From the NCBI GenBank assembly GCA_951406725.2, contig OX597834.1, positions 21,080,001-21,144,000 on the forward strand: 64,000 nucleotides of DNA, read 5' to 3'. Position numbers and translations under genes: made by a program. Source of the DNA: Octopus vulgaris. Its lineage: Eukaryota. This document shows, piece after piece, positions 20,940 to 59,019 of the stretch (its first letter is position 1; every line of letters starts with the position of its first letter). The notes beneath the pieces were generated by a model. The model was not told the DNA's origin. It did not search any database and saw nothing but the letters and a program-made list of their open reading frames with translations.

Positions 20940-21135
20940 TTGGGAGAGTTTACGCAAAAAACAAAAGATGAAGACAGGTGGTGTACAAAACAAACAGATG
21001 TATTAGTATAACGCTCAGGAATAGAAAAAGTCTTTTACGTTTCGAGCCTATGCTCTTCTACAGAAAGGGACACAGAAAAATCAAGGAGAGAAACAAGGAG
21101 AGAAAAAAATGTGTGTAGTGGCTAACAATCTATCA
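20940..21135 (-). mobile_element. Short repeat beside (TA)n carrying a hammerhead-like motif (21031-21068)
   Basis: Minus strand cttt-CTGTAGA-a-GAGC-atag-GCTC-GAAACGTA-aaag; second copy on the + strand at 29335-29505. Confidence 0.6.
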
Positions 21136-23107
21136 TATATATATATGCCTGTACGTTGTCTATTCATCCACCTGTCTCTGTCCTTCTCTCTCTCTCTCTC
21201 CACACACTCATATATTAATGGATGTGGACATATACACTATTCCATTAGAGTATATCTGTCTGTCTGTCTGTCATCTTAATTCCTTCCTTTCTATGCTTTT
21301 ATGAGTCAAATGAAATTCATTGAGCCAGATTTTTCTACAGCTGGAAGCCTTTCCTGCCACCAACCCCCATCTCTTTCCAAGCATTGTAACATTTTTCCAT
21401 GGCCAAACAAAGCATATTTTGGTGGGAAGAAAAATGGAAATAAACAACAGCAATTGTGTCACGACACATGAGGGGAAAACAGAAGAGGAGGGGTAGAAAA
21501 CAAGGAAGAGGAGGAGTAATAAAACAAAGAAGGTGGGGTAGAAGAGAAGAATTAACAAACACCCTTCTGTTAATTTTCTGTGGTGGTATTTGAAGTTCAA
21601 TTTGAATTCTCTTATCTTTTATCCTTTACTTGTGTCAGTCATTAGACTGTGGCCATGCTGGGGCATCAGCTTGAAGAATTTTCAGTCAAATGAGTCAAAG
21701 CCTGGTATTTATTTCATTGGGCCCCTTTACCAAACCGCTAAGTCACAGGGATGTAAACATACCAACACCGGTTACCAGGTGGTGGTGAGGAATACAAACA
21801 TAACAACACACACACATACAATGAGCTTCTTTAAGTTTCTCTCTATAAAATCCACTTACTAGCCTTTGGTCAGCCCAAAGCTGTTGCAGAAGATGCTTGC
21901 CTTAGGTGCCACACAGTGGGACTGAACCCAGATCCATGTGTTCAGGAAGCAAACTTCTTACCACACAGCCACACCTGCTTCTATTCTCAACAATCCCTGA
22001 AAAGAATTGTGTACCCTTAAGTTGCAAAGCATTGATCTAATAAAATACATAATCTATTTGTTAACCCCTTTTTTTTTTCTTTTTTTTTTTTCAAGCCACC
22101 CCTTTCTACCCAGTGGTTGTATTCTGCACCACCTGGTTGTAATTTCATAATTTCAGCTCTTATTACCCCAAATATTGTGTTGTGGTCACTGATTTAGGAA
22201 AGGCTGATCAATCACAAACCACACCCTAACATCATGAAGAAAAAAATGGATACATTCATTAATGTATTCTATGGTACACAATGCCTGAAACAAAAACCAA
22301 AAAAAAATAAAAAGAGAGAGAGAGAGAAAGCATGGATGGTCATAGCTGGAATGCTTTTGATCCTAAGTTTGCTTGTTCCAGGCTGACCTGGAGCTAAACA
22401 TCAATATCAATAACAACAATGACCACCACTGGCCAATATACTTGCTCAGTCCATTATGCTTGACTGAACACAAAATAAGGTTTCACCACCACCACCAACA
22501 CTTCATGGTTGAATGGCCAGCTGTAGGCTGGGAATCCAGCTGTACAAACATTTCCTCCAATATACATTTACATACATGTGTGTATATCTGTGTGCATGTA
22601 TATCTGTGTGTGTGTATTTGTATATATATATATATATATATATATACACAGAAAGAGAGAGAGAGAGATGTATATATGTATATATATGTATTTATATGTG
22701 TTTATATTGTTTATATGTGTATATGTACTTGTATATATATTTATGTATATTATATGTGTGTATGCGTTTATATATGTGCATATATGTATGTATATGTATA
22801 TTTGTGTGTGTATTTGCATATATGTGTATGTGTGCATATGTATGTGTGTATATATATATGTGTTTGTATATATGTGCATATATATATGTATGTATAAATA
22901 TGTACATATATATATATATATATATATATATATATACATGCACACATATAGTGTATGTGGTTAAGAGCTTTCTCCCAAACCACATGGTTCCAGGGGTTCA
23001 GTTCCATTGCATGGCACCTTGGGTGAGTGGATTTGGTGGACAGAAACTGAAGAAGCCCATTGTGAGTTTGTTTATATATATATATATATATATATATATA
23101 TATATAT

Positions 23108-23526
23108 ATGTATGTATGTATGTATGTATGTATGTATGTATGTATGTATGTATGTATGTATGTATGTATGTATGTATGTATGTATGTATGTATGTATGTA
23201 TGTATGTATGTATGTATGTATGTATGTATGTATGTATGTATGTATGTATGTATGTATGTATGTATGTATGTATGTATGTATGTATGTATGTATGTATGTA
23301 TGTATGTATGTATGTATGTATGTATGTATGTATGTATGTATGTATGTATGTATGTATGTATGTATGTATGTATGTATGTATGTATGTATGTATGTATGTA
23401 TGTATGTATGTATGTATGTATGTATGTATGTATGTATGTATGTATGTATGTATGTATGTATGTATGTATGTATGTATGTATGTATGTATGTATGTATGTA
23501 TGTATGTATGTATGTATGTATGTATG
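23108..23526. repeat. Pure (TATG)n microsatellite, about 420 bp
   Basis: Uninterrupted tetranucleotide array. Confidence 0.97.
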
Positions 23527-23914
23527 TTAGGGTACCGGAATACCTCTTGTCAGAAAGAGGAGTTAGCACTCCAAAGCCACAGATTTCTCACTATAAAGAA
23601 ACACGCCTGGTGAATGTGGTGAATATAATAAAAATAGGTCTTACCTTGTATAAACTACAAAGTAAGAACAGATGCATTGGTATCAATTGTTTCAACCTTT
23701 TGTGAGTTAGTACTTAAGGATTTCTAGCAAATGGTATTCCAGTACCCTAAATTATTTGTATATTTTACCTATATAGGTTATACTTCCTGGCCTCTTTATT
23801 ATCATTATTATTATTACTATTGTTATTTTTAATTATGGTAATAATGCTTTACTCAATTTCAAATAAATATATATATATATATATATATATATATATATAT
23901 ATATATATATATAT

Positions 23915-57712: not shown

Positions 57713-58845
57713 ATAGGTGCAGGAATGGCTGTGGGGTAAGAAGTTTGCTTCCCAGCCATAAGGTTCTGGGTTCAATCCCACTCCATGGCACCTTGGGCAA
57801 ATGTCTTTTATTATAGCCTCAGGTGGACCAAAGCCTTGTGAGTGGATTCGGTAGATGGAAACTGAAAGAAGCCCATCCTATTCACATGTGAATATATCTG
57901 TATGTGCATGTCATTGTGACTGTGTTTGTCCCCACCACCAACACCATCACCATTGCTTGACAATAGGTGTTGGTTTGTTTACGGCCCTGTAACTTAGCAG
58001 CTCGGCAAAAAGTGACCGATAGAATGAGAGTACCAAACTTTAGAAGTCCTGGGTTCGATTTGTTCAGGCGAAACCTTTTGAGGCAGTGCCCCAGCATGGT
58101 CACAATACAATGGCTTAAGCAAGAAAAGGACAGAGAATTAAAGATGGGTCTGTCTGCCTCAAGAGACTGACCTGGGGGTAAACAATTATCTGCAATGATA
58201 ACAACAACAGCAACAACGAAACATTATGGTCAATTTGTTAATATACTTGTGTGTGTGTGTGTATGAGTGCATCTGTGTGTTTGTATGTGTGTGTGTTCAT
58301 TGTTCATGTCTCTTTCCTTCTGTCCATCTCAAAACCCTCTCTTCTTCCTCTTTCTATCCTGTCCCAAACTTAACCTCATATTTGATTCACACACACAAAC
58401 ACACACACTCACACACACAAATATGTGTGGTAAGTAGCTTGTTTACCAACCACATGGTTCCGGGTTCAGTCCCACTGTGTGGCATCTTGGGCAAGTGTCT
58501 TCTGCTATAGCCCCGGGCCACCAATGCCTTGTGAGTGGATTTGGTAGACGGAAACTGAAAGAAGCCTGTCGTATATATGTGTGTTTATATATATATATAT
58601 ATATATATATATATATGTATGTGTGTGTATGCGTTTGTGTGTCTGTGTTTGTCCCCCTAGCATTTCTTGACAACTGATGCTGGTGTGTTTACGTCCCCGT
58701 CACTTAGCGGTTCGGCAAAAGAGACCGATAGAATAAGTACTGGGCTTACAAAGAATAAGTCCCGGGGTCGATTTGCTCGACTAAAGGCGGTGCTTCAGCA
58801 TGGCTGCAGTCAAATGACTGAAACAAGTAAAAAGAGTAAAGAGAG
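57713..58845 (+). mobile_element. Two family A SINEs (57713-58140 older; 58425-58845 younger)
   Basis: Both match the A head, body and tail. Confidence 0.85.
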
Positions 58846-58905
58846 TATATATATCATATATATCATATATATATATATATATATATATATATATATATAT
58901 ATATC

Positions 58906-59019
58906 ATATGTGACAATTTGTTGGTTGTCATAATAAGAGTTTCGGATTCCGGGGGGGGGGGCTGAAGTCTCCTCCGGCATCTCATCAGTTATTAAGACAA
59001 AACACTAATTGTCACATAT
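58906..59019 (-). ncRNA. Hammerhead-like fold with extended stem I and collapsed stem III
   Basis: Minus strand gtcttaataa-CTGATGA-gatgccgg...ccggaatcc-GAAAC-tc-ttattatgac; outer helix atatgtgacaatt / aattgtcacatat. Confidence 0.55.

Follow-up and report, generated by a model that had tools for sequence, protein, structure and literature searches.

Minimal type-I hammerhead ribozymes have been known from Penelope-like elements (PLEs) since 2014 (Cervera and de la Pena 2014, PMC4209133), where they combine a short stem I with a palindromic stem III and fall into many divergent families per genome, mostly single copies viewed as truncated PLEs. PLEs with a C-terminal endonuclease (EN), namely the clades Neptune, Hydra and Penelope/Poseidon, encode a reverse transcriptase (RT) followed by a GIY-YIG domain (Craig et al. 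2021, PMC8557442). Animal non-LTR retrozymes are short type-I hammerhead units related to the pseudo-long terminal repeats (pLTRs) of PLEs and also occur as dispersed monomers, although they are described as tandem repeats with canonical hammerheads that yield circular RNAs (PMC7229834; bioRxiv 10.64898/2026.07.22.740005). Here we analyzed nine hammerhead motifs in a 64,000-nucleotide stretch of the Octopus vulgaris genome (assembly GCA_951406725.2, contig OX597834.1, positions 21,080,001 to 21,144,000; hereafter the window), an AT-rich, microsatellite-dense part of a 2.8-Gb assembly of 227 contigs. The hammerhead class is that known since 2014, and the families found here are additional members of it. 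The nine motifs are hammerhead folds within pLTR pieces of seven PLE families that bear open reading frames (ORFs), pieces that in our judgment were probably made by RT starting in the front pLTR and running off the 5′ end of the RNA.

The behavior of pLTRs has been described from several sides. An initiator (Inr) within the pLTR has been published for Penelope (PMC2377424), and a transcription start site (TSS) and an intron in the pLTR are described in PMC2377424 and PMC8557442. An earlier account explained solo pLTRs by recombination or deletion and proposed that an antisense template might underlie intron retention (PMC3846280), for which the reason was later called unknown (PMC8557442). 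For a Poseidon PLE in vitro, the protein cleaves AT-rich DNA, RT initiates inside the RNA near the pLTR-ORF junction and a tail is seen; the hammerhead of that element cuts only with the protein, cutting is dispensable for insertion, and no RNA-seq ends lie at the cut site (PMC11167929). The literature search, which took in few subscription papers, found no report of PLE copies with preferred or spliced start sites, of a tRNA-derived pLTR segment, or of the present families, some of which may be held in Repbase, Dfam or the supplements of PMC4209133 and PMC8557442.

Linkage of the motifs to Penelope-like elements

An initial annotation of the window had listed nine motifs in at least six flanking contexts and had taken them for a diverse, high-copy set of non-autonomous retroelements. 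All nine were located close to the positions given there, which mark the low end of each motif, and they represent seven families, here called A to G, which agrees with the stated minimum of six contexts. Numbered by the first core base (C3 or U3), they lie at 21063(-) and 29380(+) (family A), 25841(+) (B), 29814(+) (C), 30435(-) and 31736(+) (D), 31871(+) (E), 52626(-) (F) and 58988(-) (G). A DNA search per family returned 680-2659 first-look candidates for each, numbers that are lower bounds, and the best 25-30 loci of each family were examined; with seven families of this size, the description as diverse and high-copy is borne out.

The supposed separate origin of these units as non-autonomous retroelements was not supported. 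Longer copies elsewhere in the genome, when followed in the 5′ direction, led to remains of PLE ORFs in every family, in A by way of a sister subfamily, so that a linkage to Penelope RT/GIY-YIG ORFs, which the initial annotation had put forward as a check, was found in every case. In the families examined, all short copies could be followed colinearly along long ones as far as their truncation point, each family is the end of an ORF-bearing PLE, and the copies do not form tandem arrays. Since the longer copies join the families to RT and/or GIY-YIG remains, the units are pLTR pieces of PLEs and not separate retrozymes, from which they also differ: they carry minimal motifs, lie dispersed as single units or as head-to-head pairs, and can be aligned colinearly with ORF-bearing PLEs.

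In L191/L192 (loci are given as L numbers), family D is joined to RT (Pfam RVT_1, E 1.4e-6, just below the cut-off), a CxxC linker and GIY-YIG (E 1.9e-5, above the cut-off), and in L193 family F is joined to a near-whole broken ORF containing RT and EN. Families E and C are joined to RT and EN of Hydra type (L255/L256) and of Penelope/Poseidon type (L255 and L190), respectively, family G to a Hydra-type EN in L202 and family B to an EN in L269; for A, the sister subfamily follows an EN in L197. Pfam scores cover D, F and one neighbor, the other ORFs having been identified by eye and with tblastn, and the clades were named by visual comparison of motifs with those given in PMC8557442. As in the EN-bearing clades described there, a CX2-5CxxC linker is present in the A sister subfamily, B, D and F and absent from C, and E and G are without CCHH and have CxxC/CxH around the end of EN. 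The window itself contains no PLE ORF remains, and of its 178 complex reading frames the 100 longest gave no match to a Pfam family. Across the genome, a Pfam GIY-YIG search gave 6136 candidates. Among the PLEs seen was a young family (e.g. L260:1245-3587) with many intact 781-aa RT-EN frames, a U3-A8 hammerhead with ACATGT, and tandem repeats in the 3′ untranslated region; this family has probably been active recently.

Preferred 5′ ends

The 5′ ends of copies were mapped strictly against a long copy, in place of a looser mapping that ran into TA flanks; the resulting rows leave out a few long copies that had served as references or had been retrieved twice. Among first-round copies, ends clustered at preferred positions relative to the core in five families (A: 18/26 at -82 to -70; B: 17/22 at -86 to -73; D: 17/28 at -174 to -138; E: 27/33 at -43 to -36; G: 19/27 at -21 to -5). 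The search queries began at -47 (A), -66 (B), -153 (D), -43 (E) and -55 (G), and copies reaching further 5′ were therefore equally eligible. The peaks coincide with TCAGTC in A (-80), TCATTT in B (-85) and TCATTG in E (-36), hexamers that we take to resemble the Inr consensus. Judged from the sequence, the preferred 5′ ends may be transcription starts, of an Inr-like RNA polymerase II (Pol II) kind in A, B and E and at a tRNA-derived head in C.

The intron of family E

Long E copies contain an 890-nt GT-AG intron that ends 13 nt 5′ of the core. The E copy of the window and 30/30 first-round matches lack this intron with an exact junction, a count that gives no proportion, as the matches were picked with a spliced query and short unspliced copies lay outside the sample. 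Of 20 E matches picked by upstream sequence alone, 18 retain the intron (two of those with a mutated donor), and the other two are the spliced query itself and one microhomology deletion. On a tree of 30 spliced and 17 intron-bearing copies over 195 shared columns, poorly supported (4/41 branches starred, bootstrap unsettled), the two forms mix, with 6 changes between them and a single origin in 0/200 bootstrap trees; spliced and intron-bearing copies also have minor alleles in common, and one cross-group pair is identical over the 195 columns. As the forms mix on the tree, intron-bearing parents have likely given rise to spliced copies on more than one occasion.

The precise intron loss requires a sense, spliced RNA template for those copies, and they were likely copied from the spliced front end of the element RNA; nearly all spliced first-round copies begin 20-30 nt 5′ of the donor. 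PLEs are said to keep their introns (PMC8557442), whereas the short E copies have precisely lost one. In the other families no intron difference between long and short copies was seen. Contigs of four presumed-RNA runs cover the E element, and one has a GT..AG joint that is uninformative as spliced DNA copies exist; contigs aligned to window positions 27950-32150 were repeat-dominated. Within the E intron, the interval L250:2302-2359 had much deeper contig cover than its surroundings in the four runs, with many loose ends, and is apparently a nested high-copy repeat.

The tRNA-derived head of family C

In 28/30 C copies anchored on EN, a 72-nt segment with A and B boxes of RNA polymerase III (Pol III) type lies about 22 nt past the ORF stop and is followed by (AAT)n and then by the hammerhead part. 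Among 25 distinct genome tRNAs, its best match is tRNA-Arg(TCG) (47/74 columns, z 7.6 vs shuffles). The cloverleaf is degenerate, ARAGORN at relaxed score gave unstable calls, and Rfam searches returned no tRNA hit on two single C copies and no hammerhead hit on one C copy. Where the head could be mapped in first-round copies (n = 14), 8 copies start at -7 to +1 of the head, 5 start inside it and 1 extends into the ORF; 11 further first-round copies were unmappable at the head. A run of four T residues is missing from 20/25 copies, which is weak as an argument for Pol III read-through given a T content of only 0.25.

Treating C as a free-standing short interspersed element (SINE) was considered and dropped, since the head occurs in ORF-bearing copies. 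The TRIMp3 elements Cassandra, Helenus and Ajax likewise have a terminal repeat that contains a Pol III-type sequence derived from a small RNA (PMC10886601), but they are non-autonomous LTR elements, whereas the segment of family C lies in the pLTR of an ORF-bearing PLE. The order of promoter and then hammerhead is shared with the SINE-like hammerhead repeats of Schistosoma (PMC6765202), and the accessible passages on EN-bearing PLEs mention no tRNA-derived pLTR segment (PMC8557442). Family C suggests how a SINE-like repeat could come about inside its own autonomous partner.

3′ ends, target sites and neighboring copies

The 3′ ends of the copies are fixed, and at least three TA units adjoin them in 30/30 copies of A, 21/25 of B, 26/30 of D, 30/30 of E, 22/25 of F, 12/25 of G (for which the 3′-end coordinates are rough) and 3/25 of C, against a background of 0.17. 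A preference for TA microsatellites, claimed in the initial annotation for the set as a whole, thus stands for five or six of the seven families and fails for C. The pattern fits the published link of the EN linker to TA targeting (PMC8557442), according to which (TA)n targets occur in linker-bearing clades only; head-to-head inverted copies and an optional tail, also reported there, recur here. Head-to-head neighbors were found at 11/25 C, 8/25 G, 7/30 E, 3/30 D and 2/25 F loci and at none in A and B, the inverted partners in C ending about 30 nt short, and the optional 3′ tail is present in 10/30 and 5/17 E copies. A direct neighbor of the same family within 1.5 kb was seen at 2/30 A, 1/25 B, 1/25 C, 0/30 D, 1/30 E, 0/25 F and 1/25 G loci; with at most two such loci per family, the units are therefore not tandem retrozymes. 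The 3′ ends of D, F and the L260 family are pyrimidine-rich, like a splice acceptor minus its last base, and such ends would put the hammerhead within an intron of a tandem transcript.

Frequency and conservation of the motifs

A strict canonical descriptor found no perfect core in the window; with up to one core mismatch it gave 5 matches against a shuffle mean of 0.85 and maximum of 4 (100 block-wise dinucleotide shuffles), and two of the five lie outside the nine motifs. A PLE-aware descriptor, which permits the published U3-A8 pair and requires a palindromic stem III, gave 5 matches with exact boxes against 0.027 in shuffles (0/300 shuffles reach 5), and 6 matches with one mismatch against 0.45 by chance. 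Compared with shuffled sequence, a control suggested in the initial annotation, the window is thus enriched in exact-box motifs by a descriptor that was drawn up after the families were known. In the locus flanks, the same descriptor gave 61 matches in 685 kb, or 5.7 per 64 kb against 0.45 by chance, and the window is therefore typical of the genome. Genome-wide, such motifs probably number on the order of 100,000, a rough figure as the flanks contain inverted partners and overlap the window. At E values up to 5, Rfam gave 421 matches to the window, of which the 150 listed were microsatellite-driven and included no hammerhead family, and a descriptor demanding a stem III insert of at least 3 bases finds none of the nine motifs. 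One PLE-aware match, at 4925(-), falls outside the part of the window covered by the initial annotation. This tenth motif (window 4850-5010, core start 4925) has exact boxes, U.U as the basal pair of stem II and stem III AGTACT, and resembles one 3′ of a GIY-YIG frame in L259.

The assignment to minimal type-I hammerheads of the Penelope kind was upheld. The family majority motifs share with the published PLE motifs an extra base after A9 (A, B and C) and the U3-A8 variant (D and F; PMC4209133). The majority motif of A is CUGUAGA (A6U) with stem III ACGU; that of B has exact boxes, ACGU and G17, with a U17 subfamily also present; that of C is canonical. D and F have the U3-A8 pair, a stem I of 2-3 bp only, and stem III ACCGGU and AGCGCU, respectively. 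In E the basal pair of stem II is U.U and stem III is ACGAUCGU, and G has a long stem II and a near-palindromic stem III with a single central base. Five distinct stem III palindromes and six distinct stem II sequences occur across the seven families, and boxes and palindrome are intact in 22/30 A, 13/25 B, 5/25 C, 22/30 D, 26/30 E, 21/25 F and 11/25 G copies.

A core rule of CUGANGA or U3-A8, GAAA, U16.1 and H17 is followed by the majority of C, D, E, F, G and the B-U17 subfamily; it is not followed by A (A6U) or by the G17 subfamily of B. Across A-type copies in all loci (n = 49), which span subfamilies about 20% apart, CUGUNGA occurs in 37, with position 7 varying (A 24, U 13, C 8, G 4). 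The U10.1-U11.1 pair and a slow A6C variant have been published for other hammerheads (PMC3088659). An A6U core was not found in the literature text examined, and the accessible text of PMC4209133 gives neither such a family-wide core nor a mapping of 5′ ends or of splicing; variants with A6U, G17 or C.A may be described by Ferbeyre et al. 1998 or Lunse et al. 2017. With RNAcofold, on one natural copy per family, the dimer was favored by 3.7-9.3 kcal/mol, the lowest-energy folds being mostly other than double hammerheads. In the flanks of L001-L315 there are more than 12 additional hammerhead-like families whose stem III palindromes are different again, among them a U4C variant of B.

Origin and role of the short copies

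The reading that we consider probable would work as follows. Tandem-derived PLE RNA would have a pLTR at both ends; RT that starts in the front pLTR and continues to the 5′ end of the RNA would yield short units that are spliced and begin at the start site, RT starting in the rear pLTR would give long, intron-keeping, randomly truncated copies, and the endonuclease would nick AT-rich DNA. The fold would likely serve the RNA of the element itself, as a weak dimer- or protein-dependent cutter or as a recognition site. Lone genomic copies are likely to be inert by-products, because single minimal motifs did not cleave (PMC4209133) and the same-family pairs of the window lie on opposite strands. 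Several observations count against the origin in the front pLTR. Mapped copies of F show no preferred 5′ end. Among incidental copies, the strictly mapped peak is weaker (2-3/23 in A, 7/16 in B); many of these are diverged subfamilies alignable only near the core, and looser mapping places 10/24 A and 11/18 B copies in the peak range. At least two spliced E loci (L069 and L070) reach more than 400 nt 5′ of the peak, so splicing is not limited to short copies. To these are added the choice of first-round E copies with a spliced query, the poorly supported E tree, clade names read from motifs by eye, and an ORF link of A that runs only via a 78% identical sister subfamily.

It is rather unlikely that the units are simply the 3′ ends of PLE copies made from the rear pLTR and truncated 5′ in the usual way, with RT pause sites (at hairpins or template switches) instead of transcription starts as the 5′ peaks and spliced E copies from occasional splicing of the rear pLTR. 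Frequent 5′ truncation of PLEs (PMC8557442), the dispersed ends of F and part of D, a small hairpin at the start of the C head and the long spliced copies L069 and L070 would all suit such pausing; however, in A, B and E the peaks coincide with hexamers resembling an Inr, in C with the start of the tRNA part, and spliced first-round E copies begin near the donor, whereas 18/20 copies anchored upstream are unspliced. The view that the short units are self-propagating SINE- or retrozyme-like masters with their own transcription, moved in trans by PLE protein, a form of the non-autonomous origin proposed in the initial annotation, appears improbable. It draws on the putative start site kept in the short units, on the A and B boxes of C (and, weakly, on its 20/25 copies lacking a T run) and on the argument that retrozymes derive from PLEs (bioRxiv 10.64898/2026.07.22.740005), but the E tree has spliced copies interspersed with intron-bearing ones, and the two have alleles in common, direct same-family neighbors occur at no more than 2 of 25-30 loci, and short copies match long ones colinearly to the truncation point. 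The idea that the motifs cut read-through host transcripts, altering pre-mRNA fate or yielding circular RNAs, we regard as very improbable: despite a flank density of some 5.7 matches per 64 kb where 0.45 would occur by chance, and two D and two A copies within the window, both same-family pairs are on opposite strands, so that no transcript would hold two sense copies for a dimer. Moreover, 3/9 motifs are decayed, a single minimal motif was inactive in published tests (PMC4209133), protein-assisted cleavage came with no RNA-seq ends at the cut site (PMC11167929), and no host gene was identified in the window, its 100 longest complex frames giving no Pfam family.

The front-pLTR origin can be extended, tentatively, to a joint reading in which one PLE RNA would have two products (its rear pLTR, unspliced, would give the long copies, and its front pLTR, spliced, would give abundant short copies of a 'strong-stop'-like kind whose ends lie at the transcription start), a Poseidon-type family would shed SINE-like copies via a tRNA-Arg-derived Pol III promoter in its pLTR, and the role of the hammerhead may be protein recognition. 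If the two-product part is true, a sense, spliced template would be recorded in the genome, which would speak against the antisense-template account of PLE intron retention. As to recognition, the fold is kept despite cores that are expected to be crippled (A6U, G17), so the selected role may not be cleavage. The importance of the genome lies in its being a natural archive of the products of PLE replication: in family E a single element is present in both spliced and unspliced genomic copies, which makes the intron-retention question directly testable, and the families with fixed non-canonical cores offer a panel for whether PLE hammerheads must cut.

Units of the window and other repeats

The canonical core is complete in none of the nine window motifs, and three (29380, 29814 and 58988) are decayed. 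One family A unit, a pLTR piece of a Neptune-like PLE, occupies 20941-21136(-) around the core at 21063, with box 1 CTGTAGA (A6U being the family state), stem III ACGT and (TA)n at both ends. The second A unit (29332-29501(+), core 29380) has lost G12, with AAAA in place of GAAA and a broken stem III palindrome. The B unit (25771-25910(+), core 25841) is 3′-truncated and has exact boxes and the subfamily state G17, ending in NUG rather than NUH; its EN link is that via L269. Family C is represented at 29604-29682(+) by a decayed tRNA-derived head (~29627-29682) behind a short inverted head remnant (~29604-29626), and at 29762-29934(+) by the 3′ part of the pLTR of a Penelope/Poseidon-type PLE (core 29814), a copy without adjoining (TA)n in which G12 is lost, AAAA replaces GAAA and the stem III palindrome is disrupted, the family motif being canonical.

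Two D units with the U3-A8 variant lie at 30348-30546(-) (core 30435, stem III ACCGGT) and at 31583-31822(+) (core 31736), the latter the 3′ end of a Neptune-like PLE. The E unit of a Hydra-like PLE (31830-32158(+), core 31871) has an Inr-like start, the exact splice junction between 31857 and 31858, a U.U pair at 10.1-11.1, stem III ACGATCGT and the optional 3′ tail from ~32080. D adjoins E at 31822-31830, and in L192, L193 and L196 different PLE families likewise stand end to end over short TA runs, as if each insertion supplied the target for the next. The F unit of a Neptune-like PLE (52459-52666(-), core 52626) has U3-A8, a C.A mismatch at the base of stem II, a stem I of just 2 bp and stem III AGCGCT. 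The G unit of a Hydra-like PLE (58906-59020(-), core 58988) has a stem III shortened by a deletion and, at its 5′ side, a short inverted copy of the 3′ end (~59008-59020). Other dispersed repeats of 190-265 nt lie at 12598-12994, 16701-16965, 38094-38321, 46368-46779, 57713-57936 and 58596-58832; the descriptors used called no hammerhead in them, and some are apparently tRNA-headed SINEs.

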